Positions 29,520 through 55,364 of a stretch of 64,000 bases of DNA are shown in pieces (positions within the stretch are counted from its first letter, which is position 1; every line of letters starts with the position of its first letter). Source of the DNA: an uncultured Verrucomicrobiae bacterium (GTDB lineage: Bacteria > Verrucomicrobiota > Verrucomicrobiia > Chthoniobacterales > UBA10450); assembly GCA_963756875.1 (NCBI GenBank), contig CAVWPA010000003.1, positions 1,280,001 to 1,344,000 on the forward strand, written 5' to 3'. The notes beneath the pieces are model-generated. The model was not told the DNA's origin and did not search any database. It saw only the letters and a program-made list of their open reading frames with translations. Made by a program: the position numbers and the translations under genes.

Positions 29520-30068
29520 ATGGATGAAGGTGTAGAGAAGCTCATCACCGGCTGGTTCGAACGGGCGCGCGACAACCAGCTGACACACGATGAATGCGGC
29601 ATCCGGCTCAACCGCTGGCATTATCGTTTGGGAATACCAATCATTGTCCTGACGACTGGTGTGGCAGCGGCCATTTTCTATTGGTTAGGCCGTCCGGATC
29701 TAAGCGACCCGATCAAGATGGCGATTGGAGTCGCCAGCGGTGCGGCGGCTCTCCTGGCCTGTTTGCAAACCTTCCTCGGCTTATCGCAGCGGGCCGACCA
29801 GCATAAGATTGCCTCCTCACGGTACGATGCGTTACGGCGAGCGCTCGAAATCTTGAAAACGTTTTCGCCGTCGGACCCGATCGAGCTGCGTCGCGCCGTC
29901 ACCGATATTCAACGAGGGATGGACCGGCTGGCCGAAACATCGCCGGCTGTTCCGGCGCGCTGGAAGGAAAAAATCGATAAGGAATTGGACAGCCGAGGCC
30001 AGGAACGCATTTTTCATCTTCCGGCTGCCGATCGCTCACCGGAAAAAATCGAACTCGGCGCCGCTTAA
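29520..30068 (+). CDS. SLATT-like two-TM effector protein
   Basis: W...AR..Q..H...LGIP.IVL (TM1), G.....LA.LQTFL (TM2) and RA..H......Y..LRR..E. Confidence 0.75.
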   Translation: MDEGVEKLITGWFERARDNQLTHDECGIRLNRWHYRLGIPIIVLTTGVAAAIFYWLGRPDLSDPIKMAIGVASGAAALLACLQTFLGLSQRADQHKIASSRYDALRRALEILKTFSPSDPIELRRAVTDIQRGMDRLAETSPAVPARWKEKIDKELDSRGQERIFHLPAADRSPEKIELGAA

Positions 30069-35815: not shown

Positions 35816-36520
35816 ATGACGAACACAGAGACCCAAGACGTGAGAGAACTGCCTGCGTACGGAGTTGCGGAGGCAGCGCACTACCTTCTGGTCCCCCGCG
35901 CGACTTTGCGTTCGTGGCTCGCGGGAATGTCATACGGTACAGGCTCCGGACGAAAACTATTCAAACCCGTGATTCAGCCGGCTGCCAGGTCCCCGGTCGC
36001 ACTTTCGTTTGTTAATTTGATTGAGGCCCATGTCCTGGCCGCCATCCGGCGAAAATATCGAGTCGACATGCCGGCCGTTCGTAGATCCATCGACTTTTTG
36101 AAAAATAAGCTTGGCTCGGCGCATCCTCTCTCTGATCACAAATTCGAAACCAACGGTGTTGACCTGTTCATAGAACGTTACGGGCAGCTCATGTCTGTAT
36201 CGCAAGGTGGGCAGCTTGCAGTGAGAGAATTGCTGAAAGCACATCTGCGCAGAATCGAACGCGATGAGAAAGGATTTCCACTGCGGCTTTATCCATTTAC
36301 GCGCGTGGGTGACACCGATCAGCCGAGGAACATCGTCATCGATCCGTTTGTGTCATTTGGTCGTGCCGTCATTTCTGGAACGGGAGTGAGCACCGAGTTG
36401 GTTGCCGAACGCTTCAAGGCCGGCGAATCCGCGGACGAACTCGCCAGCGATTACGGCTGCGAACGGGAAAAGATTGAAGAAGCGATCCGTTGCGAACTCA
36501 GCCTCGCCGAAGCCGCCTGA
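35816..36520 (+). CDS. DUF433-domain antitoxin (VapB45-like)
   Basis: N-terminal HTH (Y...EAAHYL.VP..TLRSW), SF.NL.E, and C-terminal IDP...FGR.V..GTGV...AGES...LA.DY. Confidence 0.85.
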   Translation: MTNTETQDVRELPAYGVAEAAHYLLVPRATLRSWLAGMSYGTGSGRKLFKPVIQPAARSPVALSFVNLIEAHVLAAIRRKYRVDMPAVRRSIDFLKNKLGSAHPLSDHKFETNGVDLFIERYGQLMSVSQGGQLAVRELLKAHLRRIERDEKGFPLRLYPFTRVGDTDQPRNIVIDPFVSFGRAVISGTGVSTELVAERFKAGESADELASDYGCEREKIEEAIRCELSLAEAA

Positions 36521-36908
36521 AGAACTCACTTTCTTTCTCGATCGCCAACTTGGCCGTTACAAGATGGCTGGGGCGCTTCGGAATGCCGGTCTCAAGGTCG
36601 AGATACACGACGATCATTTTCCGCAGAACGCTCAAGACCCGGAGTGGTTGGCAGCGGCTGGGAAGAACAACTGGGTTGTAGTCACGAGGGATGAACGCAT
36701 TCGCTACCGTGTCGCCGAGAAACAAGCGATCCGCCGCGCCAAAGTCCGGGCATTCGTGATCGCTGCTCAAGGCGATTTGCGAGCAGAAATACTGGCAGAC
36801 ATTTTTCTCAAAGCGCTTCCCAAAATTCGGCGAACCGTGAAACAGCGGAAGCCGCCCTTCATCGCAAAGATTTCACGCGGCGGCGACGTCGTTGTCCTTG
36901 AATTCTAA
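36474..36908 (+). CDS. PIN-domain toxin (VapC45-like)
   Basis: FFLDRQLG, D.EWL and VVTRDERIRY motifs; likely TTG start at 36474 overlapping the antitoxin end. Confidence 0.82.
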   Translation: MKKRSVANSASPKPPEELTFFLDRQLGRYKMAGALRNAGLKVEIHDDHFPQNAQDPEWLAAAGKNNWVVVTRDERIRYRVAEKQAIRRAKVRAFVIAAQGDLRAEILADIFLKALPKIRRTVKQRKPPFIAKISRGGDVVVLEF

Positions 36909-36945: not shown

Positions 36946-37241
36946 CAGTGTCGATAGTTAGCTCAGACCCCTTTTTGCCTGACCCGTTGTGCGACGTCTT
37001 CGCCGGCTCCGCGCCCTTAGCCCTTACCGCTTCGCCCTTACCCCCTTGCTTCCCGCAGCGCGCGAATACGAAGCCAAACTCAAAATGCGGAAAAAGAACA
37101 AAATGGAGCGAAAGGGTTGAGCGACATAGAAGGTAAAGCCGTAAGGGTAGCGGCGAGAGAGCGTAGGAAGCGACCGAGTTTCAAAGCCCGCGCGTCAGTG
37201 CCGCAGTTCTGACGCAGCAGTGTCGATAGTTAGCTCTGACC
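36946..37241 (+). repeat. 24-bp direct repeat CAGTGTCGATAGTTAGCTC(A/T)GACC
   Basis: Copies at 36946-36969 and 37218-37241; a diverged copy at ~30247-30271. Confidence 0.75.
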
Positions 37242-37263
37242 GTTAGCTAGTTTCCGTGGTAAT

Positions 37264-37896
37264 TCAGTGGGGCGTCTTGGGCGGCAGGCCTTTAAAGAAG
37301 ACGACCGGCTTGAGCGCGTTGAGCTTTGCCGTCACACTCCTGCGACCAAGTTGATATTCAATTACGGGAGTCATATCAAAGACTCCTTCGGACTTTCCGC
37401 GGACGACAATTTCAATCGATTCCTGATCGTTTGCTTTAACGACGTTAAAGTTAGCGTTCGGGTCCGTCACGTGTGCATCAAAATCTCCCGTGCGACCTTC
37501 GACAGCGCATTCGTATTGCCTATATTGGCTTCCCGCGACCATCTCTCCGTTACCGACATATATTTTCCCCTGTCGGTAACTTGAGACTTGGATGCGGATG
37601 CTAGTCAGAGTAACGGTGAACGGGTTCCGGTTTGTTACCTGGAAACGAACAATCGGCGCCTGTGTCTCGCGACCTGTTCGGAAAATCGGGTTATCGATCG
37701 TAGGAAAACCATAAAGACCCTTCAGCTGTTCCCCGTTGCGGAGGTCGACCCCGTTAATGTCGTAACCGCGTTGCGGCGCTGCTACAGCTTCGCCGAATTC
37801 GAGAGGCTTAGAACGTTCTTTTAGCCAGTAAAGCAGAAGAGATACTGAAGCGCCCGCGACGATCGCAATTATCGCTACCCAAACGGCAGGAGTCAT
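37264..37896 (-). CDS. Hypothetical single-TM-anchored protein directly downstream of hsdR
   Basis: N-terminal TM helix then a beta-rich domain; starts 5 nt after the hsdR stop. Confidence 0.7.
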   Translation of the reverse strand: MTPAVWVAIIAIVAGASVSLLLYWLKERSKPLEFGEAVAAPQRGYDINGVDLRNGEQLKGLYGFPTIDNPIFRTGRETQAPIVRFQVTNRNPFTVTLTSIRIQVSSYRQGKIYVGNGEMVAGSQYRQYECAVEGRTGDFDAHVTDPNANFNVVKANDQESIEIVVRGKSEGVFDMTPVIEYQLGRRSVTAKLNALKPVVFFKGLPPKTPH

Positions 37897-37901
37897 GGTC
37901 T

Positions 37902-41072
<3,171 letters not shown>

Positions 41073-41075
41073 GGA

Positions 41076-42189
41076 CTAGACTGGTTCTGAAAAGAGACTC
41101 GCTGAATCGCAGACGCATCCAACCGAGCATCACGAGGTGATGAATGGCGCTGGCGACCTCCAGCTGTTTCTCGTCCGTCCGCCACGCCTTTTTCCAGTCC
41201 AGAATGAAATCGTAGAGCTGCTGTTCGGCGACTTCCTCTCCTGGTCTTGCGCGCTTGAGCTCCCGGCTCGCGAAGAGAACTGTCAGGACTTCCTCGGCTT
41301 GATCCGTATTCTTGATTCGGCTGAAAAGGTCGACCGTTTTCGCGATCCGTTTCGCGTGCCGTTCGATCACCTCGGTGTATTTGAGCCGATCCTCTTCGTA
41401 TTGCGGGGCTGCGCGCAACGCGGTCATTTTGCCCAGCTGCTCTTCGCGCACCCAGTTCCGGTTCGCCAATTCATGAAGGGCGATTTTTACCTCATCCGCG
41501 AATGGTCCGTAGCTTCCTTTTTCAAAACGGAAACCGGTTTGAACTCCCGTCTCCGTGAGGACGTAGGCAATTTTTTGTAAAATGGTTCGCCCCACCGGAT
41601 TCGTGTACGGCTGCTGACCCAGTTCACGCACCACCTCCACCAGCGCCACCCATTCAGGATTAAGCTTCTCTGGCGACGGCCTTTGCCGCTCAGGCTCATC
41701 TGCGAATTCGCGCCGAGGAAGTCCAGAGTGAGTTCATTTTTTGGCGTGCCGTAGGGGGCATAAACCTCCACATCGAAGTCGGCGTCGCGCAGCTTCGAAT
41801 AAATAAGCGGCCCAACCTCCGACCAATCCAGTCCGCCGTTTCCGCAGCCGAGAGGTGGAAAGGCCACGCTTTGGACGCCCCACTCCTCAGCGTGCGCGAC
41901 GAAGTAATCCAGGCCCCGGTTCATATCCGCGAGCCGCGATGCGGATCGCCAGTGATCTTTGGTCGGAAAGTTCACGATCATCGCACCGCCTGGATCGCGG
42001 TAAAGATACGGTTCACCCAACCGCACTTGTTTGCGCATGCACCGCGCGGCGTAATCTTCGAACATCGTCGGGTAGGCCTTCTTAAACTCCAGCGCGACGC
42101 CTTTCCCCATCACGCCAACGCAGTTCACGGTATTGATCAGCGTTTGAGCTGGGCTGTCGGAAAATGTCTCCGATCAGAGGTTTGAACAT
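41076..42189 (-). CDS. darG: DarG macrodomain antitoxin (frameshifted near 42160, 41665 and 41090)
   Basis: NTVNCVGVMGKGVALEFK, VNFPTKDHWR and PPLGCGNGGLDW; C-terminal LQKIAY...F.KG.YGPF. Confidence 0.88.
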
Positions 42190-42201
42190 GCGAATGCGGG
42201 A

Positions 42202-42788
42202 TTAGTGAAAGAATAAGGCCGAATCGACCACAATGGATAGTCCAAAGCCGAGTGCTCGGAGACGTTCCTCCGAGGTTTTGTCTACGCGGTACGCCCCCAG
42301 AAGGTATTCGGGTCCCACCCGATGCGGCACGAGCACTTCGGCGCATTTATGCGCGCTGTGCCTCCATTCCGCGATTTGGTCGTCAGGATGCTTCCAATTC
42401 AAGGCAAAGATATCCTCAAACGCGAGCACCCGCCACTGCGATGGAGCGAGGAACCGAACATACTTGCTTGAAGCATTGGAGTCGGCCAGGACGACGCCAT
42501 CTAAATTGAGCACATCAATCGAGACACGCAGAACACAAAGTTCCGTGGCTTCTTTTCTTCGCTTGGAGAGCATCGGATTTCGCGCGTGAAAATAGAGATT
42601 CGCATATTGATGCAGTTTTAGGCCGCTCGGCACCTGCTTCGATCCCGCAAATCTTGGACTGCCTGTAACGCCACCGAGCGGTGCTCCAGGCGGGCCGCCT
42701 GTTCGTGGGAGAGAATGCCGTGCTTCAAGACCGATGAGACGTTCTCAAGCGGCATGATGCACTGAAATTCGGTTACGCGCGGGTCCAT
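42202..42788 (-). CDS. darT: DarT DNA ADP-ribosyltransferase toxin (DUF4433), frameshift near 42645
   Basis: SVLKHGILS, LHQYANLYFHARNPML, DSNASS and catalytic CAEVLV; directly upstream of darG. Confidence 0.88.
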
Positions 42789-42854
42789 CGGTAGGTCGTA
42801 GCTTAGCGAGAGAACTCTATTCCCGAGGAGTCAATCTTCTGCTTCGCATCCATG

Positions 42855-43716
42855 TCATGGATGCTTCTCTTCAGACCAAGCTTCTGACGACATTTTCGGC
42901 AAAAGAGTGGCGCATCGAGCCGGGAGAAATTCCTTTCAACTCGAAGGTTTCACCCGTGATTTCGTGCGTCATGCGCGAAGCAAAACCAGCAATGAAATTC
43001 AGGATTGATCGAAATTCTTGCTCGGTTACTTCCCGAGCAAGCACGCCGAAAAGCTCCACCGAGTCCGTCCTTTGGCTCTGCTCCGGGAAGCGTGTGAAGT
43101 CGTTTCGCCAAGTTCACCGACTCACCCAAGAGAGTCCACTCACTATAGCCTTTCCTTCAATGCGATCCACGAACTGTAGGCCGGACCAGAGGCCGATTCG
43201 GAACGGATAGTTTGGTCCCAAGGGTGCGCTGGAGATCGTGCAGACTCCCGAGCAAGAAGCTCATGTCAAAGATTCCGGGAACTCCGCCGTCTGCCTCCAT
43301 GTCCGGTACAACAAACATAACTTCGTCTCCGATGGTCTTATCAACGAGTGCGCCGGCGTCGACAGCCTTATCCGTGATGCCGACAAGGAATGGCTTCAGG
43401 TATTCGCTAATTTCCGATGGCGATGAACCTGCAACGCGCGTCGAGAAACCGATCAAGTCTACGAAACCGACGAAGCCCTTAATTTCCCGCTGGCCGAAGT
43501 AAGCATTGGCAAACGCCGCGCCGCTGTCGGTAAGTTCGAGAGCGCGAGTGGAGTAAGCCCGAGGGTGGCGGCCGAGTCGATGTAGACCGGCTCGATGTTC
43601 AAGCCATTCATCCGTCTTTCGTCCAGCAATCATGCGGTCACCTGAATCATGTGCGTTCGAAACTCCACGAACCAGCTTGACGCTTCTTCAATTCTTGCAT
43701 CGTCCAACAAGGTCAT
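42855..43716 (-). CDS. Stand-alone class III nucleotidyl (adenylate-type) cyclase, several frameshifts
   Basis: Reassembled by hand: FVDLIGFS, VDKTIGDEVMF, FRIGL, EWTLLGESVNLAKRL and ELKG. Probable ATG at 43716; start and end are approximate. Confidence 0.78.
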
Positions 43717-43723
43717 GCTCAAG

Positions 43724-44623
43724 TTACCAACCGGCTTTCTTAGCTTCCGCGATCAGCGCCGCTGCACTGTAATTCATTTGGTTTTCGAAATCATTCCGTA
43801 ACCATCGGAAAATGCGGTCAAACACGAGCGGGCTCTTGCGGCGATTGTCGAAGACTTCGTCCTGAAGAAGCCGCGAGGTTGCCGTGACGTCGGCCTCCAC
43901 CTTCCCAACTAGTGCATCAGTCCACAGTTGCTGCGCATGATCTTTCAAAGCATCAAGGCGCTTTGCCGCCTCCAGTTGCTCGGTCAATTGCCTAACACCG
44001 AGGATCAGCAGCGGCGCCAAGGGGGCCACCACGCTGACAACAAATGTTCCAGGCTGAGTTGCCTTTGCAGCGCGACGCACAAAACAAGTCCGCAGATGAA
44101 AAGCACAAGCGATATGATGATAACGGCGTACCGGCGTCTCTGTTTTGCGTCCCACCAGCAATTCGAGCGTTGACACACGATGCGCCCGAGATGGAGCGGC
44201 AGCTGTGAGACCGAAGGGGCATACCAGTCGCGGAGAGTTGGCATCTCAGCCCGGAAGGGCGTATCGCCCTGATTTGTTCCTTTATCAGTTCCGGGTCCGG
44301 TCTGTGGCCAGCCTTGACTGAATTCCATGGGAGCTGAAGCACGTCACAGTCGAACTCCTCTTGGACTCGCGCCGCTCGTTCCCTGAGCAACTTCTGCCAT
44401 GGGGTCAGCCAGAGCACGTCGCACAGTGCGACGCCGATTCCGAAAAGAGCGGAGTAACCTTTTAGGTTTGGCCAGATCAAGCCAATCACGGCGGAAACGA
44501 CAGCGCCAGGGCCGCTCAGTATGATCAAGGGGTACTAAAGACACGCTTCGCTGGACCGGACAGCTGCCGTTGAGCGGCCAGTCGCTCGAGCTGTAGTGGC
44601 GAATTCTGTTCCGCAGCGATCAT
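43724..44623 (-). CDS. S-4TM (SMODS-associated four-TM) CBASS membrane effector, frameshifted
   Basis: EQNS...L..LAAQRQL..PAKR, AARVQEEFDCDVLQLPWN, LRDWY, CQRSNCWWDAKQRRRY and RLLQDEVF.NRR.SPLV across frames. Confidence 0.85.
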
Positions 44624-44625
44624 AC

Positions 44626-45497
44626 CTAGTAGGAGTAGGTCGGAAATTCGTAGTTATATAAAAGTCGCCACCAGTCGAACGCTTCGGAGATTTTCCCCTT
44701 GGCAGATTCATCACGAGCGTTTTGCGCGCGGGTGTATGCGGTTTCCAGCTTCGAGAGGGCGTCTGTCCGTGCGGCATCACTCTTGCAGGGTGCGATGTAT
44801 CCAGAAACTCCCATGGGATCCTGCAAGCTCGGTAGTTGACCATCCCAAAGTAACTTCAGAACGTTTCTGACATCATACTCATACATGATCGTAGTTTCTC
44901 CAGACGCATACTTCGCTACTCGAATCTCCAAATAGAATGACGAGATCGGAACAGCGCGGAAGTATTTCCAGGCTTTTAGATATCGAATGAGGGGCTTGAC
45001 CCTTTTGGCTAATTTGTCATCGACGGACCGCACGTACGCATTGTGCGCGTCCGGACTCGCTTTCATCCAACCGCCTGAACAGTCTGCGATATCGTAGACC
45101 TTGAAGCCGTTGGTCTCTCCAGTGCAATCTGCCGGCACGATCTCTGTTATTTCCGACTTCCTGGTGCCGAAAGGAACAGCAACCGCTGGACAGTTGACCG
45201 CCACACCAGTGTCGGAAACCGCGTATCCAGCGCGTTGCGAACCTTGACCAATGATGAGGTAGAAACCTGCGTCAGTTGATCGGTAGGAAGAGAGGCCAAG
45301 TAGTCGACATCGCTATATCTCGATATGCTTGTCCAGTTACCAAAAGAGCCGATACGAGCGAACCGCTTCAACCCGAAATTATTCTTGAGGCATGCCTCGA
45401 TTGACGCGCGGTGGCTTTTAGCGGCATCGGACTCGCCCGTTTGGGGTTTCAGCTTCGACAGGAAATCGTCAAAGCCTTCTTCGATAGTTCGCGGCAT
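44626..45497 (-). CDS. CD-NTase / SMODS nucleotidyltransferase (CBASS synthase), one frameshift near 45210
   Basis: GSF...TSI..YSDVD (GS plus DxD), PAV.V.F, EIVPA, W...SP, KPLIRYLKAW, SF.LE, DP and C-terminal W..L...FP. Confidence 0.87.
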
Positions 45498-45499
45498 AT

Positions 45500-46758
45500 C
45501 TATTGCCTCATTGACTTCTGTTCTGTACTCTTCCCGCTCAGCAGCTTCGGCAGCAGCGTGTCGCGCAGGGTGTCAGAGTGCGGGCTTCTCTTCATTGTTC
45601 CGAATCTGAAAACCAACGGCTTGCAAACCGGCCAAACGCGTCGTAATTCGCCGGCGGTACGGGACGACTGACTTGAATCACAGAAGTCGTGCCAATGCCC
45701 TTCGTATTCGGAGAACGACGAACGGCCCATCGGTTGCATAGTAGAGCCCAAAAGGTATCAAGGCCCGAAACCGACGAACGGCAGGACTTCTGACTCGCGG
45801 AAAAAGAATATCGTGATCAGCCGCATGTAGCGGTGTGATTTGCAAAAACCGCGACTAGGCCTTTTGGGTCGCTGATCACGTCCCGGCTCGTTGCTGTGAA
45901 ACGCTCATTATGAAGCCGATCGCCTTGGTCCAGAGACTGATATTTTCGCACCGGGGATAGGTCTCTGTTAGTGCTTTTGCCCGACGAAAGGGCTTGATGA
46001 ACTCCCCAATTTTCATCACTTTCCAGCCTTTCGGAATGTGACCAAGCTCTGAATTTTCGAACTCGTTAGGGAAGAGAGCGGCGGTGGCGGGGTCGAGGCC
46101 GGCGGGTTGGCGGCCGTCGAGTTTGGCGCGGACGGGGTCGAAATCCACGAACCAGCTCTGGAACAGCGCCCGCGCCATCGCCTCCAGCGTCGCGTTCATC
46201 CGCCGGTTCAACTCGATCTTGTCGTCCAGCGCCCCAAGCACCGCCGCGATGGCTTTTTGCTCGGCGAGGGGTGGGACGGGATTGAAACTCGATAGATGTC
46301 GTCGCGACGTAAGTGCTTCCTGACTGTCGCGTACCGCGGCAGTGCCACCAATGAAGGCTGATCGTGCGCAGTGATTCAGAAAAGTAGCAGAAGCGCTGGT
46401 CTGGCTCGCCCCTTGCAGCTAACGGACTGCTTGATTAAGCAAACGCGTTGCCTTCGCAACGCAACACGGTACTGCCGACGTCCGATCAGCCGAGTTAATC
46501 AGCGTTCAGCGAGAACGCCAACAGTCGCGATGAAACAGCATCACCTCTCGTGAGTTGTAGCTTCAGCTACTTCGGCGAACCTTCGTAATCGAAGTCGTCC
46601 ACTCGTCGCGCGCATGCCATCGCCGATACTTGAACGTTCACGCATCAACGAAGGCATCGCGGCTCGGACCGATAGTGATCGCTCTTGAAGAGGCAAACCC
46701 TTTCCATGTGGCGCAACGCCTTCACAGCGAGTTCAACGTCTGTCCATTCACTCGCCAT
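45500..46758 (-). CDS. hsdS: Type I R-M specificity subunit; conserved regions readable, both TRDs garbled
   Basis: ATG at 46758 overlaps the hsdM stop. Central [30 protein letters not shown]...ELG.IPKGW and terminal [12 protein letters not shown] are intact. Confidence 0.8.
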
Positions 46759-48358
46759 AACCCAACCCCCTCAGGTTTGCTTTGATGGCCTGCTCCAGTT
46801 TCGCGGACTCGGCGAACTGGGCGTGCAGTTCGGCGACGAGGCGCGGCATCTTTTCCTCGAAGGGGTCGCCGTCGTCTTCGACTTCCTCGGCGCCGACGTA
46901 GCGGCCAGGCGTCAACACATAGCCATGCGACGCGATTTCGTCAGTCGTGGCTGACTTACAGAAACCGGCGACATCTTGTATGTCGCCGGAGTTCGTTATC
47001 GGTCCTGTGTTACGGTGGTCGCCTCTCCATGCGTGATAGGTGTTCACGATCTTCGCGTGATCGGCTTCGGTGAGTTCGCGGTGGACTCGGTCGATGAGCG
47101 TTCCCATTTTGCGCGCATCGATGAAGAGGGTTTCGCCTTTGCGGTTGCGACGTTTCAAAGCAGACGGCCGGAACTCGCCCCGCCGGTTTTGTTTTTCGCC
47201 AAAAACCAAAGGCAGACGGGAATCTGCGTGCTGTAGAAGAGCTGGCCGGGGAGGGCGACCATGCAGTCGACGAGGTCGGCCTCGATGAGGGCTTGCCTGA
47301 TTGTCCCTTCGCCGGACTGGTTGGAGGACATGCTGCCATTGGCGAGGACGAAGCCGGCCATGCCGTGGGGCGCGAGGTGGTGGATGAAGTGCTGCACCCA
47401 GGCGAAGTTGGCGTTGCCCCGGGGCGGGACGCCATACTGCCAGCGCACGTCGTCGTCTTTGCGGAACCAGTCGGAGTCGTTGAAGGGCGGGTTGGCGAGG
47501 ACGTAGTCGGCGCGGAGGTCGGGATGGAGGTCGCGCCGGAAGGTGTCGGCGTGCTCGGGGCCGAAGTCGGCCTCGATGCCGCGCAGGGCGAGGTTCATGA
47601 CGGCGAGGCGGCGGGTGGTGGGGTTGCTCTCCTGGCCGTAGATGCTGATGTCGCCGAGCTTGCCGCCGTGGGCTTCGACGAATTTCTCCGATTGCACGAA
47701 CATGCCGCCGGAGCCGCAGCAGGGATCGTAGATGCGGCCTTTGTAGGGGGCGAGCATCTCGACGAGGAGGCGGACGACGCTCTGCGGGGTGTAGAACTGG
47801 CCGCCTTTCTTGCCTTCGGCGCTGGCGAATTGGCCGAGGAAGTATTCGTAGACGCGGCCGCAGGACGTCTTTCGAGCGGCGGCCTTGTCGCCCAGGCCGA
47901 TCGTGCCGATGAGGTCGATGAGTTCGCCTAAGCCGATGTTTATCGAGCGCGGGCCGGGCGTATTCTTTCGGGAGGACGCCTTTGAGGCGCGGGTTGTCGC
48001 GCTCGATCGCGACCATCGCGTCATCGACGATCTTGCCGATCTCGGGCTGCTTGGCGCTGTTCTGGAGATAGGTCCAACGCGCGCCAGGCGGAACCCAGAA
48101 GACGTTGACGGCTTTGTATTCGTCCTGGTCTTCGGGATCGGCACCAGCGTAATCGCCTTTGCCTTCTTTCAACTTTGCGTGGTGCTCTTCAAAAGCGTCG
48201 GAGATGTACTTCAGGAAGATGAGGCCGAGGACGACGTGCTTGTATTCGGCCGCGTCCATGTTGCTGCGCAGCTTGTCGGCGGCGAGCCAGAGCTTGGCTT
48301 CGAATCCGATATTGGCGGAATTGTTGTTCGACGAGGCTTTGGATTTCCCGCGCGCCAT
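46748..48358 (-). CDS. hsdM: Type I R-M N6-adenine methyltransferase, frameshifted
   Basis: [35 protein letters not shown] and LTPGRYVG motifs. Confidence 0.93.
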
Positions 48359-48591
48359 TTGAAAGGCGAAACCTAACAGAAGCGTTGTTCTCTGTAGAGC
48401 GGAAAAAGCGTCCGCCAGGCGGACGCGGTTATCGGTTAATCGTTAACGGTTATCGGGGGAAGCAAGAAAGCCAAGGGGCAAGAGGTAAGGGGGAAGAGCG
48501 AAAAGGGCATGGAGCAGGGAGCGCGGAGTGCAGATTTTTCACAGAAGGAAACGAAGGCAGCGAAGGAGGGGGAAACGGCGAAGCGGTAAGG

Positions 48592-48615
48592 GCTCGCCAC
48601 GGCGAGTAAACTGCG
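48592..48615 (+). repeat. Dispersed micro-palindrome CTCGCCACGGCGAG-TAAACTGCG
   Basis: Copies at 54316, 55152 and 61110, an inverted copy at 30097-30116, and the variant CCCGCCGCGGCGGG-TAAACTGCG at 49611. Confidence 0.8.
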
Positions 48616-48920
48616 GGCGAGGAAGGACGACAAGACCGCGGACTACGGGACAACGAGGACGCGGAAAAGCCGAAAACGAAAGAAACGTCGAACCCTCCTT
48701 CGCCATGCTCCGGCGGGCAGGCTGCCCAACGTCCAATGTCGGAAATGCAGAGGATGAGGTCATTTGGGAAGTGGCGAGTGACCCACCGCGGCGGGTTCGT
48801 CTAAGCGAACATGTGGCGAGTGACGAGAAGGAACGAAGGCTGCAATCTTCGAGGACGATCAGCGAGCGAGTTTCAAATTAAGAATTAGAAATTAGGGAGC
48901 AGATGCGTTATTCTTGTGCT

Positions 48921-49124
48921 ATGAGCGCGACGGAAATCATCGAGCAGTTCAAGGCTCTTCCCGCCACTGAGCGGGCCCAAGTGGCCAAGTTCGTTGTGGA
49001 AAACGATGATTCCTGGATTCCGGATTCCTTTAAGCAAGGTATGGCCGATGCCGCTGCCGGTCAGTTTGTGGATATGAAAACCGCGCTCAGCGGAGCAAAA
49101 CCGCCGTCTCGAGCGGCGGAATGA
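48921..49124 (+). CDS. Putative antitoxin
   Basis: Small acidic protein whose stop overlaps the start of a RelE-like gene (ATGA). Confidence 0.7.
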   Translation: MSATEIIEQFKALPATERAQVAKFVVENDDSWIPDSFKQGMADAAAGQFVDMKTALSGAKPPSRAAE

Positions 49125-49390
49125 AATACTTTGCTACCCAGCGATTCTGGGAAAGCTTCTACGCCCTTTCATCAAGCCAGAAGGAGTCTACGCGTCGAGC
49201 TTGGGCAATCTTCAAGGAGAATCCTTTCGATCCACGACTGCGAACTCACAAGATTCACAGGCTTTCGGCCCGGTTCAATCGCACGATTTACGCGGCCGAG
49301 ATTGAAGCTGACTTGCGAGCGGTATTTTACATCGAAGCCGATGTCGTGGTGACGGTGGATATCGGCTCGCACGATATTTATCGCGGGTAA
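49121..49390 (+). CDS. RelE/ParE-superfamily toxin
   Basis: F...F..L, F.ENPFDPRLRTHK, LRAVF and DIGSHDIY motifs. Confidence 0.8.
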   Translation: MKYFATQRFWESFYALSSSQKESTRRAWAIFKENPFDPRLRTHKIHRLSARFNRTIYAAEIEADLRAVFYIEADVVVTVDIGSHDIYRG

Positions 49391-49652
49391 ATAGATCTGG
49401 GGTTGCTTGTTCTTCCCAAAGTGTCGCGGGGTTCGAAGCCGCGCTTCGGGTTAATTGTTATCGGTTCTCGGTTATTGGGGGGAGCAACAAAGCCAAGGGG
49501 CAAGAGGTAAGGGCGAAGGGCGGAGCGCGGCGAAGCAAACGTCGAACGCCGAACTCTCAAAGCAGAAATGGAAAATGGCAACCGGAGCGGTTGCCCTACA
49601 ATTCAGATGTCCCGCCGCGGCGGGTAAACTGCGGGGAAAGGGCGAAGGTCAT

Positions 49653-49966
49653 CCGCCTACGCCAAGGCTTCGGCGTGATTCGTCCCGCTTCGCGGGCGAA
49701 AAAGAGGTGAGGGTTAGCGCAAGGCGCCGTTGAGGAGGGTAAGGGGCTTGGCTCCCCGAGCCAAGTCGCCGGCTTCCCTAGGTCGCGGTTGCGACCTCCC
49801 GCCGTAGAGTTCGCGCCCTGCGAACCGTAGAGGTCGGAGGACGGAATTTGTTCGGAGGGAGAACAAAACAACGAAGGGCGACCGCCTACGCCAAGGCTTC
49901 GGCGTGATTCGTCCCGCTTCGCGGGCGAAAAAGAGGGTGAGGGTCAGCGCAACGCGCCGTTGATGG
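49653..49966. repeat. ~83-bp direct repeat that includes the last codons of the OLD gene
   Basis: 49653-49735 versus 49882-49966. On the minus strand the copies read LNGALR-TAA and INGALR-TGA. Confidence 0.85.
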
Positions 49967-51968
49967 AAGTGATCAATTTTTCCCAGCTGGTGCGTTCGGT
50001 GTCGGACAGGTTGGCGGCGGTGTGGTCTCGGGTCCAGCGCACGAATGCTTTGGCCAGGCGGTATCGGGAAAAATCGCCGATCTGGGTTTTGAAAATATTG
50101 ACCACGGATCTGCCGGGCTCGGCGTTGGAAGCGGCTGCGACGTCCCAGTTCAGCTCGGTCCGGGCGACGTGGACCAGGGTGTCGCGCAGCAGATCTTCAA
50201 CTGCCGGGCGTTCGAGCGGGCCGTCGTAAACATCTTTGGTCCGGAGAACGGATTTGTTGCCGAGCGCTTGCACGAGGCGTTCCTGGTGCGCGGCCTGGTC
50301 GGGAAACATTTCCGAATCCAATAGTGCTGCGACTTTGAGTTTGGATGCGTGCAAAACCGTGGCGTAATAAACCACCTTGCCGGCGCCGCTCGCGGGCAGA
50401 AGCGAGATCTTGTCACTGAGATCGGCAATGCCGGCATCGCGCAACAGTTGGGCGACCGCGTCGAGGTACCAGTAATCGGTCAGGCTCTCAAGAACGAGAT
50501 TGCGCTGCTGCGCGAACAGACTCTGGGCAAGATCGTACCCGAGCGATTCTCGTAACGGCAAAAGCGCAACCGGGTCTTCGGCGGCAATGCCGGTGTGGAC
50601 CTTGGTGCCAACGGTGCGGTCGGTCATTTCCACGACCCGAACCAGATTCAACTCGTCCGGCCCGACCAGAAACGGCGAGTGCGTGGTATACATGGTCTGA
50701 TTAGATTCGGCCAGGCGGGAAATGGTGTTGCGGAATTCGCGTTGCTTGAGCGCGTGCAAACTCAGGCCTGGTTCGTCGAGCAGCAGGATGGCGTTTTTGT
50801 GATTCTTCGCGGCCTCGGCGAAAAAGACGATGAAGAACGAGACCAGCCACTGAAAACCTTCCGAACGCTGGTCGAGCTCGATCTCAACCCCGACGTCATC
50901 CTCGACAATCATTTTGAGATACTGACCATCGCACACGATGCGCAAGCGCTCAGCTTCATCGCGTTTCGAATCGGGCATCCAGGTGGCGCGCAACTCGTCG
51001 GTCAGCCGGACACTGGCGGCGTTCAGTTGGTAGGAGCGACGATCGAGTTGATCGCGATAAGCCTGGAGCGCGGCCGGATCACCCATCGGCGGTTCCTCGC
51101 CCTTGCCGAGATCGGAAAGCTCGCGGGCGCTGAACCCGAGCAATTTCAAAAGACATTTGTTTCCGTAATCGTAGTAATCGTCGTCGATCAGGTTGCGTTC
51201 GATGCGTGTGGCGAGATGATCGAGATGAATCAGCGGACGAACACGGAAGAAATCGCGGAACCGAATGAACAAGGGTAAACGCCGGCCCAGGGTCCAGAGC
51301 ACGTTTGAGCGCTGGTCGTTCGCCTCAATGGTCTTGACCAGGTCGTCGTAGCGTTTTTCTTCGACTTCGTTTTTTTCTTCGACGTGCGGGAAGGCCTTTT
51401 CGATTGCCGCCTTCAAAATCCGCGCGGGCTCGCCAGCGAGCTCGTAATCGTCTTTCCAATCGTGGGCCAGGGCAACGATCGGGGTGCTGGGAGGATCGGC
51501 CGGCGACATGTCCGGTGCCGGCGCCGGCACATGGCTGTCGATGTGCGCGCAAAAACGGGCCAGATCCTTTTTGATGTCGCCGAATTTCTTTGCCGGTGGC
51601 GCGCCGAGAAAATCGTGCCAGAACGAATTATCCAGTTTCCGACCGAACACGTAATCGTATTGGCGATATTCAGCCGGAATTGTCTCCTTGTCCTCGTCGG
51701 TCAGGCCGAAGTGCGCTTCGACCACTGTGACCTGGCTGGGCAGGATTTTTCCAGAATTGATATCGTCGTATTCCGAGCGCGGATAATCGCGCAGCGGATC
51801 GAAGGCGCGAATGCCAACCGGAGGATTGATTCGCTGGATCGCTTCCAGGAGAGCGGTCTTCCCGGCCTCGTTAGGCCCGATCAAAATAGTTTTGCCTTTC
51901 TCGAGATCGAACCATCCGCTGTCGCGAATGGAACGATATTTTGTGACCCGAACCCTTTTTAGAAGCAT
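49944..51968 (-). CDS. OLD-family ABC ATPase with C-terminal TOPRIM-like domain
   Basis: YRSIRD, Walker A GPNEAGKT, signature RSEG, Walker B LLLDEP, TTHSP and TOPRIM-like LVLESLTD...LLDSE; ATG at 51968. Confidence 0.85.
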   Translation of the reverse strand: MLLKRVRVTKYRSIRDSGWFDLEKGKTILIGPNEAGKTALLEAIQRINPPVGIRAFDPLRDYPRSEYDDINSGKILPSQVTVVEAHFGLTDEDKETIPAEYRQYDYVFGRKLDNSFWHDFLGAPPAKKFGDIKKDLARFCAHIDSHVPAPAPDMSPADPPSTPIVALAHDWKDDYELAGEPARILKAAIEKAFPHVEEKNEVEEKRYDDLVKTIEANDQRSNVLWTLGRRLPLFIRFRDFFRVRPLIHLDHLATRIERNLIDDDYYDYGNKCLLKLLGFSARELSDLGKGEEPPMGDPAALQAYRDQLDRRSYQLNAASVRLTDELRATWMPDSKRDEAERLRIVCDGQYLKMIVEDDVGVEIELDQRSEGFQWLVSFFIVFFAEAAKNHKNAILLLDEPGLSLHALKQREFRNTISRLAESNQTMYTTHSPFLVGPDELNLVRVVEMTDRTVGTKVHTGIAAEDPVALLPLRESLGYDLAQSLFAQQRNLVLESLTDYWYLDAVAQLLRDAGIADLSDKISLLPASGAGKVVYYATVLHASKLKVAALLDSEMFPDQAAHQERLVQALGNKSVLRTKDVYDGPLERPAVEDLLRDTLVHVARTELNWDVAAASNAEPGRSVVNIFKTQIGDFSRYRLAKAFVRWTRDHTAANLSDTERTSWEKLITSINGALR

Positions 51969-52304
51969 CCTGAACCGAGAATATGTTTTTGTCGGTTTAA
52001 AGGAAAGATTTCTTTGGGCCTGTGAATAAGTCTGATGTGAATAGTTTGTGAATAACAAACTGAGGACGGAGGTCGACGAGCCGTCCGTTAGCAAAGGGGG
52101 AAGAGGTAAGGGGTAAGGGGGAAGAGCTTTGCGCGGCATGATTCGGACGAACCGGTCTTTGAGGTCACAAATTGTGACCAGTTCCGGATGCGGGAGATTT
52201 AGCGCCATAGGCGCCGGTAAGCGCGAAGAGGCAAGGGCGAAGCGTCCGCATGGCGGAGGCGGAATTGCTTGCTAAAGTACGCGGTTTAAAGGTACAACCA
52301 TCCC

Positions 52305-52451
52305 ATGGGGCTAATCATTCTTATCATTGTGATTTTGTTGTTGATCGGAGCTTTCCCGACAGGCGGTTATGGATTCGGCTACCGGTCGCACGGCTTGATC
52401 GCAACCATTCTCATTATCGTTCTGATTTTGTGGCTGCTCGGGCGGTTGTGA
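52305..52451 (+). CDS. DUF3309-like small membrane protein (48 aa)
   Basis: Read by hand: MGLIILIIVILLLIGAFPTGGYGFGYRSHGLIATILIIVLILWLLGRL*. Confidence 0.82.
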   Translation: MGLIILIIVILLLIGAFPTGGYGFGYRSHGLIATILIIVLILWLLGRL

Positions 52452-52599
52452 CGAAACAGGAAATGTTTCGGGTTAATCGCCACGGCCATGCCGTCCGTTG
52501 GCGGATCGGTTAATTGTTATCCGTTCTCAGTTGTTGGGGGGAGCGAAACGGCGAAGTGGCGATACGGCGAAGCGGTAAGAGGTAAGGGCGAAGGGCGCG

Positions 52600-52645
52600 G
52601 CAAACGCCTCTCCGAGCCGTATGGCTCTACGAGCAGGAGGCGAAC
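52600..52645 (+). repeat. 46-bp dispersed repeat
   Basis: GCAAACGCCTCTCCGAGCCGTATGGCTCTACGAGCAGGAGGCGAAC, identical at 60988-61033. Confidence 0.85.
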
Positions 52646-53070
52646 GCTCAACGCCCAACGTCCAACGCTTAACTCAGAAGGCAGAGGCTAGACATCAGAG
52701 GTCGGATTTTCACAAAAGGAAACGAAGGGAACGAAGCGGGGAGAAAAGGACGACAGGACGACTGGGGAAAGCGAAGCGGTAAGAGCGAAGGGGTAAGGGG
52801 GAAAGGCGTGGGCGGGAGCAGGGAGCAGGGAGCGTGGAATTTCGATTGGCGATTTTCGATCTGGCGAGCGGAAATAATCAGAGATGTTTCCCAGCCTTCG
52901 CATAACCATTCCTACGAGGTATAGGCTGATAGATTTTAAGTATTACGGGTTAAGTTTCAGAGTGGGTGATTGTCCGGGGTTGAATTCCTTTCCGCTCACG
53001 CGGCTTAGCGAAAATTAAAGGAAGCGGCTGAATAGATCGCGAAAGCCCAACGACTAACACATTAAATAAT

Positions 53071-54147
53071 ATGAAAAAGTTTACCAGTTTACTAATAGGG
53101 TGCGCGCTGGCTCTGGCTGGAGCCGCGTTGGCTCAAGGGCCTACTGAGCAGCAGTCACCAACACAGCAACAGGCTCAGGCCCCGGAAAAAACCCACAAGG
53201 GCAAAGCAAACCGCGGTGAGAACGCAAATCGCGGTAAGAAGGCGGCAAACCCAGAAGCAACGGGCATGACGAAGCAGCGCGGGGCGAAGAAGAACGAGCG
53301 GGCTGGATCGAAGATGCAGAAAACCGAGGCGAACACACCAAACCCGGAGGCTACCGCCGCGATGAAGCAGCACGGAATGAAGCACGAACGGGCTGGGTCA
53401 AAGGGGCTGAAAACCGAGGCGACGCCAAAATCTGAAACCTCGGCTAATAAGACGGGCACGAATGTTTCCGGTCAGGCGGGCTCCAGTGCGGCTCCCGAGG
53501 GCAAAAAAGGGAAAAACGCGCGTGGTGGTGCAAACGCAGAGACATCGCCAAGTGCGACTTCGGGAACATCAGTTGCGGCTACCGGCCAGGAAAAGGGGAA
53601 GCGTAAAGGGGCCGGCGCGGCGAAGAAGCTTGAACCGAAGAAAGTCCAGCAAATCAAATCGCAGCACGCGAACTTCAAAGCGCAACCAAGGCCTGAGAAG
53701 GTTCCGGCGGTCACGTTCAGCGCGAGCTATCGGATTCAAGGAAGCGATCACTGGCAGGGTCCGAAATACGAAGTGTTTCGCTCGTATCATCCGGAACGGC
53801 ACGATCGCGGTTGGTATCATTCGCGTTACCATCGCGTGGAGTTGATCGGTGGCGGTTACTACTACTTTAACAACGGCTACTGGTTTCCGGCATGGGGTTA
53901 CAGTCCTTCAGCCGAGTATTACGCCTACGATGGACCGATCTATGTGGGTCACCGCGCTCTGCCGCCGGACCGCGTGATCGCGGACGTGCAAGCCGAGCTG
54001 CAGGAGATGGGCTATTACACGGGCGAGGTGGATGGATTGCTCGGGCCATTGACCCGGGAAGCGCTCACCGCCTACCAGGCCGATCAGGGGCTGGACACGA
54101 CGGCAGCGATCGACGAGCCGACGCTCGATGCCCTCGGGATGGGATAA
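53071..54147 (+). CDS. Secreted protein with Lys-rich disordered region and C-terminal peptidoglycan-binding domain
   Basis: Signal peptide; VQAELQEMGYYTGEVDGLLGPLTREAL.AYQ...GL...TL.AL. Confidence 0.88.
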   Translation: MKKFTSLLIGCALALAGAALAQGPTEQQSPTQQQAQAPEKTHKGKANRGENANRGKKAANPEATGMTKQRGAKKNERAGSKMQKTEANTPNPEATAAMKQHGMKHERAGSKGLKTEATPKSETSANKTGTNVSGQAGSSAAPEGKKGKNARGGANAETSPSATSGTSVAATGQEKGKRKGAGAAKKLEPKKVQQIKSQHANFKAQPRPEKVPAVTFSASYRIQGSDHWQGPKYEVFRSYHPERHDRGWYHSRYHRVELIGGGYYYFNNGYWFPAWGYSPSAEYYAYDGPIYVGHRALPPDRVIADVQAELQEMGYYTGEVDGLLGPLTREALTAYQADQGLDTTAAIDEPTLDALGMG

Positions 54148-54204
54148 GGGACGCGACGCTGCTGGTTAATCGTTAATCGTTAGCGGTTAACGGGAAGCAG
54201 TTAA

Positions 54205-54243
54205 CGAAAAGCCGCCGATGGAATTTCCTCGGCGGCTTTTTCG
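54205..54243. terminator. Rho-independent terminator (probably bidirectional)
   Basis: AAAAGCCGCCGA-loop-TCGGCGGCTTTTT downstream of 53071..54147. Confidence 0.8.
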
Positions 54244-54304
54244 TTTTGGAGGACAACGGTTCGCAGGCGCGAACTTTACGGCGGGAGGCGGTGAGCCAAG
54301 GGCC

Positions 54305-55280
54305 AAGGGGTAAGGGCTCGCCACGGCGAGTAAACTGCGAGCGAAGAGGTAAGAGCACGGAGCTAGGAGCACGGAGGCGGAAAACGCCGAACCCCGAATG
54401 GTTTCGGGGCCGTCCTGCGGCAGGCGCCGAACGCCGAAGACCAGAAGTCAGAAGTCGGAGGTGCTCAACGTATCGAGCATCCAGCATCGAGCATCCAGCA
54501 TCCAGCATCCCGTCGGAGAGGCAGTAGACAGTTGGCAGTTTAGGCTTTTAATGGGAGAGCCTCGGTTCTAGCTTGCCGCCCTATGTTTACACGAATCTTT
54601 CTCGGTCTTCTTTTAATCACATTGGCTTTTTCCTCCGCGCCGGCGGTTCGGGCAGCGGGCTCCGAGCCGAGCGAGGCGTCGGTCAAGCAGTTGATCGGTA
54701 TCATGCAACTGCACAAATCGCTCGATTCGTTGGTGGCGCAGATGAATAAGATCATGGAGACCGCGGCAGAGCAGGCCAGCCAGGGTCAGCCGCTTTCGAC
54801 TGTTGCGAAGGCGAGCCTGGATAGATGCCGCACCGACGTGCATACGTTAATAAGACACGATGTTTCCTGGGAGAAAATGGAGCCGGTTTACATCAAGATC
54901 TATCAAAACACGTTCAACCAGAGTGAAGTCGACGCCATGATCGCCTTTTACAAGACTCCCGTGGGCCAAAATGTCGTCACCAAGCTGCCAGTCGCCATGC
55001 AGAACGCGCAGAACGAAACGATGCAAACGATGCGTCCGATGATGGAGCGGATTAAGCAGATGCAACAGGAAGTGGCGGCGGCAGCGCAGGGTTCGCACTA
55101 AGGCGCAGGGGCGGAGAGCAAAGGGCCAAGGGCAAGGGCTAAGGGGTAAGGGCTCGCCACGGCGAGTAAACTGCGAGCGAAGAGGTAAGAGCACGGAGCT
55201 AGGAGCACGGAGGCGGAAAACGCCGAACGCCGAAGACCAGAAGTCAGAAGTCGGAGGCGCTCAACGTATCGAGCATCCAG
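54305..55280 (+). repeat. ~140-bp direct repeats flanking the DUF2059 gene
   Basis: 54305-54484 versus 55141-55280, near-identical apart from 40 extra bases in the left copy; partial third copy at ~58412-58465. Confidence 0.88.
54583..55101 (+). CDS. DUF2059-domain secreted protein
   Basis: Signal peptide; IYQ.TF...EV.AMIAFYKTPVGQ....KLP. Confidence 0.85.
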   Translation: MFTRIFLGLLLITLAFSSAPAVRAAGSEPSEASVKQLIGIMQLHKSLDSLVAQMNKIMETAAEQASQGQPLSTVAKASLDRCRTDVHTLIRHDVSWEKMEPVYIKIYQNTFNQSEVDAMIAFYKTPVGQNVVTKLPVAMQNAQNETMQTMRPMMERIKQMQQEVAAAAQGSH

Positions 55281-55364
55281 TATCCAGTATCCAGTGTCGG
55301 CCACAGACTGACTCTCAACTAAAGGAGGCTTGCCGTCCGTTCTCTCAGCTATCAACTTCTCCCA

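Follow-up and report, generated by a model that had tools for sequence, protein, structure and literature searches.

Independent defence cassettes stacked between hsdS and hsdR in a verrucomicrobial type I restriction-modification operon, with a candidate cyclase family and remnants of hsdR starts

[quoted passage not shown] (bioRxiv 10.1101/2024.01.29.577857), with co-oriented cargo inside type I R-M and Hma operons; statements on this and the other papers cited below refer to those parts of the texts that were used here. The locus analyzed in this work is a type I R-M operon in which genes for a CD-NTase, an S-4TM membrane protein, a class III nucleotide cyclase, DarT and DarG lie between hsdS and hsdR. 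It is located in a window of 64,000 nt from an uncultured Verrucomicrobiae bacterium (UBA10450; contig CAVWPA010000003.1), and all coordinates count from the first letter of this window.

Several described systems resemble parts of this operon. DarTG inside type I operons has already been published (PMC5179494, PMC12255303), and the RRDM island of enteropathogenic Escherichia coli (EPEC; RptR-hsdM-hsdS-DarTG2-hsdR-M48; PMC12255303) shares with the window a macrodomain DarTG placed straight before hsdR, at a site that its authors call a potential recombination hotspot. Unlike the EPEC island, the window has two further cassettes ahead of darT, and no RptR or M48 gene was recognized. PrrC of EcoprrI, likewise cargo within a type I operon, is kept silent by the R-M complex until Stp sets it free (PMC12707154). 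The CD-NTase and S-4TM genes correspond to a type I (minimal) CBASS (antiphage signalling by cyclic oligonucleotides) with a 4TM effector, i.e., a CD-NTase plus one adjacent effector without ancillary genes. Our literature search (titles and abstract starts) returned no CBASS between hsdS and hsdR, no member of the cyclase family and no hsdR-start scars, although older surveys or supplements may list them. In the main text of Payne et al., cyclases and CBASS are not mentioned; the supplementary family lists may include them.

We consider it probable that independent cassettes accreted stepwise in the known hsdS–hsdR slot, that the cargo acts in parallel and that the numerous frameshifts of the operon are mostly errors. 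The five-gene combination is a real one-off stack; since it occupies a known slot, the combination itself matters little, and the newer parts are the cyclase family and the hsdR-start scars.

Layout of the operon

Genes were called by scanning the open reading frames (ORFs) of the window with Pfam, PADLOC (2.0) and NCBIfam profiles, and the junctions were read off the sequence. The features, all on the minus strand, are listed in the order of transcription.

46748..48358, minus: hsdM, type I methyltransferase, frameshifted (Pfam HsdM_N and N6_Mtase; 80% identity to an intact homologue)
45500..46758, minus: hsdS, specificity subunit, frameshifted (PADLOC Specificity_I, E 1.4e-41)
44626..45497, minus: CD-NTase (SMODS), 290 aa in homologues (PADLOC PDLC00776, E 6.7e-80 and 2.2e-32; 81% to homologue P0063)
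43724..44623, minus: S-4TM membrane effector, 301 aa in homologues (Pfam S_4TM, E 6e-24 and 3.8e-22; PADLOC 4TM effector)
43630..43716, minus: decayed 28-codon copy of the hsdR 5' end, putative insertion scar (likeness to hsdR N-termini; position)
42855..43633, minus: single-domain class III nucleotide cyclase with adenylyl-type residues, ~255 aa in homologues (93% identity to homologue P0002)
42202..42788, minus: darT, DNA ADP-ribosyltransferase, frameshifted (Pfam DarT, E 1.3e-18; 69-76% to the intact protein of genome G633)
41076..42189, minus: darG, macrodomain antitoxin of DarTG2 type (PADLOC DarG, E 1.1e-58 and 1.5e-20; 78-85% to the G633 protein)
37902..41072, minus: hsdR, restriction subunit, heavily frameshifted (Pfam HSDR_N, SWI2_SNF2 and T1RH-like_C)
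37264..37896, minus: open 210-aa transmembrane (TM) ORF with an N-terminal hydrophobic stretch, without family

The order of nine co-oriented genes proposed in the initial annotation was confirmed by the Pfam and PADLOC matches together with the homologues, and its gene identities and its comparison with the slot of PrrC hold; the R-M set of hsdM, hsdS and hsdR is complete. hsdM and hsdS overlap by 11 nt, and the following gaps measure 2, 2, 7, 66, 12, 3 and 5 nt. These values agree with those given earlier, except that the 7-nt gap after S-4TM opens the 28-codon hsdR-start ORF and not the cyclase. The start of the cyclase, set by the starts of its homologues, lies at 43633, where its ATG overlaps the stop of the 28-codon ORF (ATGA). 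The earlier observation of a GC contrast was right in that the cargo (0.52-0.57) lies below hsdM (0.62) and hsdR (0.65). The cargo is not GC-poor against the mean of the genome contigs (0.56-0.57); hence, GC content is no mark of foreign cargo, and hsdM and hsdR are the GC-rich genes.

The spacing of the genes makes a single transcript plausible. Scans for promoters and terminators stayed at the level of shuffled sequence (4 vs 3.2 and 18 vs 14.0, respectively), and an RNA run over the operon gave short pieces only. A terminator-like hairpin followed by a T run was noted at 48408-48426 (minus strand), 50 nt ahead of the hsdM start, so the operon promoter would need to sit within those 50 nt or the hairpin be read through. 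At the other end, the 210-aa TM ORF matched no Pfam, PADLOC or NCBIfam profile, and its Atlas matches were unnamed clusters at 0.90-0.91. Its single homologue among the fetched loci (L030 of genome G028, 69%) is also found behind R-M-like genes, whose identity rests on an hsdM tblastn match and partly on N-termini that we presume to be of R-M type.

Independent modules and remnants of hsdR starts

The gene content and motifs agree with the reading of the CD-NTase and the TM effector as a minimal CBASS. GS, D63, D65 and E119 of the CD-NTase are invariant in the family alignment (A2) and were also found in the window frames; E119 is assigned as the third acid from this invariance, its alignment to the closest solved structure (6p82, E 2e-23) being gapped. 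The protein scored 99 bits, below the cut-off of 200 for the NCBIfam model CBASS_cyclase_b. There were 1254 relatives at E <=1e-20, and a metagenome scan confirmed 397 loci, the best 80 of which were analyzed. The gene after CD-NTase was S-4TM in 59 of the 80 loci and another gene in 13, the remaining 8 being cut; in one subgroup (L089, L090, L097, L099, L111 and L117) a shared gene of ~255 aa replaces S-4TM. At the threshold used, hydropathy plots of S-4TM gave four segments in L053 and two each in L173 and L071. On the other side, hsdS was immediately upstream in 28/80 loci (24/64 clusters at 95% identity), hsdR directly upstream in 2 and an hsd gene elsewhere in 5; less than 700 nt of upstream sequence was present in 13, and no hsd gene was detected in 32. 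Plasmids yielded six distant CD-NTase records (37-39%). The label hsdS-adjacent was clustered on the 64-row CD-NTase tree, with nine changes compared with a mean of 16 after shuffling (17/64 rows ungrouped). An origin of the hsdS-adjacent CD-NTases in one clade was rejected, given the nine changes and 0% of bootstrap trees with a single one. With 28/80 loci behind hsdS but nine changes on the tree, this CD-NTase clade is often at home in type I operons without being bound to them.

Identification of darT and darG as a toxin–antitoxin pair also stands, the Pfam, PADLOC and NCBIfam searches supporting the DarTG2 assignment. The Glu in the KCAEVLVP motif of DarT aligns to an Ala of 7omu, which we take to be a catalytic-mutant structure. 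The FPTK-x-HW motif of DarG, with the catalytic lysine, aligns with solved DarG macrodomains (residues K80/H82/W83; PMC5179494).

The modules were not found to travel together. CD-NTase, S-4TM and darTG were all missing from the 19 cyclase loci (detected in 18 genomes), as were the cyclase and darTG from the 80 CD-NTase loci, and synteny of the whole cassette was absent from these two sets and from 60 relatives compared at the DNA level. The initial annotation had presented the operon as one layered-immunity unit and had named a lack of co-occurrence of homologous modules as the result that would speak against it; this is what we observed among the loci examined. The five cargo genes are therefore a stack of independent cassettes and not a designed unit.

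The host family points the same way. Among 354 other genomes searched for CD-NTase and darT, CD-NTase occurred in one, G562, in the order hsdM-hsdS-CD-NTase-S4TM-hsdR with open cargo frames. darT occurred in seven: in three complete hsdS-...-darT-darG-hsdR operons (G633, G598 and G685) with other cargo between hsdS and darT, once between hsd fragments and three times elsewhere. The match of G633 to the window begins at the darT start codon and runs unbroken to where hsdR ends (76% over 4.9 kb). G038, a genome of the same taxonomic order as the host, has hsdS-darT-darG. None of these statements relies on the unpublished genome G007. The cyclase was present in 1/300 other family genomes, i.e., patchily, and a phylum sample gave a match in 1/400 other genomes. 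The window thus reads as a G562-type front, the cyclase and a G633-type back.

A further suggestion of the initial annotation was that the cargo may guard the R-M complex. In such a guard model the CBASS pair or the cyclase would sense inhibition of the complex by Ocr, ArdA or Stp-like proteins and respond with abortive infection, as PrrC does. The shared slot, the CD-NTase right behind hsdS in 28/80 relatives, its tight coupling to hsdS (2 nt) and the position of the cyclase beside R-M or Hma genes in 9/19 loci would fit such a role. Set against these, the CBASS pair is found ahead of three hsdR types that resemble one another little and stands without a detected hsd gene in 32/80 loci, and the neighbours of the cyclase (type I, type ISP, Mod-like and Hma) have no subunit in common, so a specific protein contact would be hard to keep. 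PrrC, unlike this cargo, is almost exclusively embedded (bioRxiv 10.1101/2024.01.29.577857), and the cargo of the window is not tied to one R-M family. The guard model received no direct support, and we regard guarding of the R-M complex as rather improbable.

Traces of the way in which cargo entered were found behind the CBASS pair. We surveyed those 24 hsdS-adjacent CBASS loci in which S-4TM is complete and is followed by 90 nt or more of sequence. In 17 of them an hsdR start lies no more than 16 nt past the S-4TM stop: 12 are remnants of 25-109 codons (nine clusters at 95% CD-NTase identity), three are full and two run off the contig. A second hsdR follows behind further genes in 7 of the 12 remnant loci, and L073 carries three hsdR starts. 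Three hsdR N-terminal types occur behind the pair, and the 28-codon ORF of the window occupies the same position as these starts. Its score against 26 hsdR N-termini was matched by 1/3000 shuffles and by 2/6000 random ORF starts, one of the two being the true hsdR start. The 3' end of hsdS is duplicated too, in L033 and L054. Two or three hsdR starts with RhuM-like, HipA-like or ATPase genes between them were also seen in the type I operons L021, L022, L071, L072, L073 and L077; in L021 and L022 this tandem accretion occurs without CBASS.

Stepwise accretion would proceed as follows. The hsdS–hsdR junction of a mobile type I operon would have taken in the CD-NTase and S-4TM pair, the lone cyclase and the darT-darG pair one after another, each cargo arriving with a fresh hsdR start and the old start staying upstream as a decaying duplicate. 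The observed scars are most likely due to a single crossover within the first codons of hsdR, which are conserved. A comparable process is insertion with long target duplication (PMC2853133; Furuta 2010), in which copies of a stretch across a translation start lie on both sides of the insert and the target gene stays intact; in that case whole R-M systems enter a genome, and here the duplicated target would be the hsdR start and the insert the cargo. Judging by the spacing, the cassettes would use the operon promoter and translational coupling, yet act in parallel. Restriction, CBASS killing and the action of DarT are established for these families: the R-M system would cut unmodified DNA, upon infection the CD-NTase would synthesize a cyclic oligonucleotide, by which S-4TM would be opened and the cell killed, and DarT, released from DarG, would ADP-ribosylate phage DNA. 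The cyclase, as its residues and context suggest, would most likely act as a defence gene without an effector and turn ATP into cAMP when the cell is infected.

Some results weigh against stepwise accretion. No hsdR remnant was seen in 7/24 loci, and inspection by eye of the 66 nt that separate cyclase and darT revealed none. A blind hidden Markov model built from three sequences left the window remnant outside the top 15 of 40,201 ORF starts, so the support for the scar depends on a position chosen beforehand. Many of the comparison contigs were short, and co-occurrence of the modules could be missed in them.

The single-domain cyclase

The cyclase fragment of the window had no Pfam match, and its class was assigned through homologues, fold and residues. 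A word-based search gave 57 relatives, and a representative library 94 clusters at E <=1e-30. Judged by length (<=280 aa), 48 of the 52 full-length representatives have no sensor or membrane domain; rare fusions to GNAT, receiver and peptidase-S74 domains occur. The structure model of P0002 (pLDDT 91.6) was closest to CyaB/CyaC (Z 16.6, rmsd 3.0 over 180 aligned residues, and Z 16.3, rmsd 2.7 over 177), which were also best by sequence, and the PycC structures ranked lower (Z 14.2, 13.6 and 13.5). In P0002 and in the window, D58, D102, K98, T166, N173 and R177 fall in the alignment on catalytic residues of adenylyl cyclases; we take the two Asp to bind metal, Lys and Thr to recognize adenine, and Asn and Arg to stabilize the transition state. 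Among 56 diverse members, D58, D102, K98, T166 and R177 are kept in 52-55 (K98 in 55, T/S166 in 52), N173 is present in 28, and H13, E103 and E164 are conserved as well. By these features the protein is a predicted cAMP producer of the class III adenylyl type. The C-terminal LLPK was considered as mimicry of an HsdS end motif and rejected, as the structure model shows it to be one of the strands that make up the cyclase fold.

The class III fold and the defence context are shared with PycC of Pycsar systems, which are defined by a pyrimidine-type base pocket and an adjacent PycTM or PycTIR effector. Unlike PycC, the present family has K98 and T166 of the adenine type, as in CyaB/CyaC, in place of a pyrimidine-type pocket, and no adjacent effector. 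PADLOC matches to PycC cover the cyclase core only (E 6e-8 to 1.5e-15); neither PycTM nor PycTIR was found among the neighbour ORFs scanned (84 + 33, a subset of the ORFs of the 19 loci), and no effector or conserved membrane gene recurs beside the cyclase across the 19 loci. None of seven cyclases scanned matched an HEC or PDC model at E 1e-4. Searches of plasmids, viral contigs and long fusions (weak evidence for the last) gave no match to the cyclase.

In 9 of the 19 loci, R-M or Hma genes, named independently by Pfam and PADLOC, are found no more than 3.5 kb from the cyclase:

L034: cyclase between hsdS and hsdR
L035: cyclase between hsdM and hsdR fragments
L038: cyclase after hsdR
L033: cyclase before an hsdS-end remnant
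L047: cyclase after a type ISP gene
L037 and L048: cyclase before N6/N4 methylases (Mod-like)
L049 and L050: cyclase between an SNF2-type gene and hmaB

The family thus occurs in both of the settings, type I R-M and Hma, described by Payne et al. For comparison, stretches no farther than 3.5 kb from an R-M gene make up 0.93% of the host genome (G000) by the same queries, which were drawn from the cyclase loci themselves. In L050 (1849-2993), an HTH/MqsA-like gene and a SecB-like chaperone gene precede the cyclase in the Hma-like locus and resemble a toxin–antitoxin–chaperone module.

These results make the cyclase a candidate undescribed defence gene. We tentatively propose a single-gene antiphage family in which the conserved N-terminal arm (H13, R14 and G16) may serve as an off-switch, infection or loss of restriction may be the trigger, and activity would drain ATP or flood cAMP receptors with no dedicated effector; the hsdR start would be a reusable tandem entry site that leaves countable scars. 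A doubtful but serious alternative is a hitch-hiker that serves ordinary cAMP signalling and has settled in permissive loci. The absence of R-M neighbours from 10 of the 19 loci, several of them among housekeeping genes, counts in its favour and against the cyclase as defence cargo, and so do its canonical adenylyl residues and the lack of an effector partner. Five of the nine neighbour-free loci have ~1 kb or less on one side; the tenth locus (L042:9566-12437) has a GNAT-cyclase fusion immediately upstream of a dCTP deaminase defence gene. A mere hitch-hiker fits poorly with 9/19 loci beside R-M or Hma genes as opposed to 0.93% of the host genome, with this further locus ahead of the deaminase, with the patchy distribution and with the prevalence of members that, by length, have no sensor or membrane domain.

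As the cyclase adjoins S-4TM in the window, it could also supply a second signal to this effector, either as an activator or as a constitutive decoy whose loss opens the pore. The analogy is Panoptes, a constitutive cyclase with a membrane effector that co-occurs with CBASS (PMC12657230). The cyclase's neighbours in the window are the hsdR remnant and darT, so an hsdR scar lies between it and S-4TM, and no conserved membrane gene flanks the family. With 0/19 cyclase loci containing S-4TM or CD-NTase and 0/80 CD-NTase loci containing the cyclase, such a role fails for lack of co-occurrence and is very unlikely. The cyclase as a cassette of its own is the reading that we retain.

Frameshifts, surroundings of the operon and significance

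In the assembly, the reading frame is broken in each of the eight genes between and including hsdM and hsdR, and the TM ORF alone is open. Frameshift-aware alignment to intact homologues gave two events (net) in hsdM, one in CD-NTase (near 45212), three in S-4TM, four in the cyclase, one in darT and two in darG, which probably has a third in its final codons. For hsdR, 17 frameshifts and one stop were counted within the aligned part only, and for hsdS ~5 against a poor homologue. The 4.25 kb of cargo thus contain 11 indels of one base each and are free of stop codons. The baseline was taken from 264 proteins of 400 kb of the relative G020, 110 of which have a clear orthologue in the host: 8/110 could not be followed in a single frame (136 kb covered), which gives a density of at least ~0.06 indels/kb. 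A genome-wide sequencing error was thereby ruled out, and with the core genes nearly free of frameshifts the damage is local to the operon.

The frameshifts most probably stem from errors of the local consensus, in an island of poor coverage that varies among strains. The other explanation, that the operon is truly pseudogenized and the locus a dead sink of defence genes, appears unlikely. It would account for the load of ~2.6 indels/kb in the cargo and ~7/kb in hsdR against ~0.06/kb in the core genes, for the open 754-aa gene only 1.6 kb away, for the position of most indels outside homopolymers (by eye) and for the stop codon within hsdR. Such decay is difficult to reconcile with a cargo free of stop codons despite 11 indels, with the retained catalytic residues, with the third-position excess relative to homologues and with events that are all single-base and biased to insertions (21 insertions vs 10 deletions among the 31 indels judged against at least three homologues); gene decay in bacteria has a deletion bias. 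Also in favour of errors, a public contig covering 44742-45517, a stretch in which one frameshift is predicted, differs by 21 substitutions and one gap of unspecified position. Against consensus errors stand the confinement of the damage to the operon, which leaves real decay as a minor possibility, and the public runs, which held no read set of this strain: the best share of window words was 0.10, and shares up to this value represent conserved parts of relatives. In run X2, a contig joint at 37138-48860 may represent an empty site; it lies amid dispersed intergenic repeats and was not used.

Such purine-rich repeats, present in many copies here and in family genomes, bracket the operon at 37000-37190 and 48427-55300. 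Toxin–antitoxin-like pairs flank it on both sides, one of DUF433/HTH and PIN_10 genes (35816-36908, plus strand) and one of 73-aa and 89-aa genes without a family match (48903-49390, plus strand), the second gene of which we presume to be RelE/ParE-like. The 754-aa gene (49944-52208, minus strand), 1.6 kb upstream of hsdM, encodes an ABC-type ATPase (AAA_15/AAA_21) with OLD/AriA/GajA-like PADLOC matches and is a candidate single-gene defence; its homologues in several family genomes have 67-78% DNA identity. A lone SLATT_4 two-helix membrane gene (29520-30068, plus strand) scored 94 bits against an NCBIfam cut-off of 55, and no cyclase or SLOG gene was recognized by eye among the ORFs upstream of it. 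A search of the window for tRNA genes found none.

The stack points to two matters of wider interest. The duplicated hsdR starts offer a possible mechanism for the build-up of cargo at the hsdS–hsdR junction, left open in the related papers as far as consulted: the Discussion of Payne et al. speaks of a genomic sink and gives no insertion mechanism beyond that. They may also serve as a sequence mark for mining more cargo. The second is a family of ~90 clusters of single-domain adenylyl-type cyclases with a neighbourhood of R-M and Hma genes far above chance and no candidate model in PADLOC 2.0. If the cyclase blocks phage, cAMP-type chemistry without a paired effector would join the repertoire of bacterial immunity.

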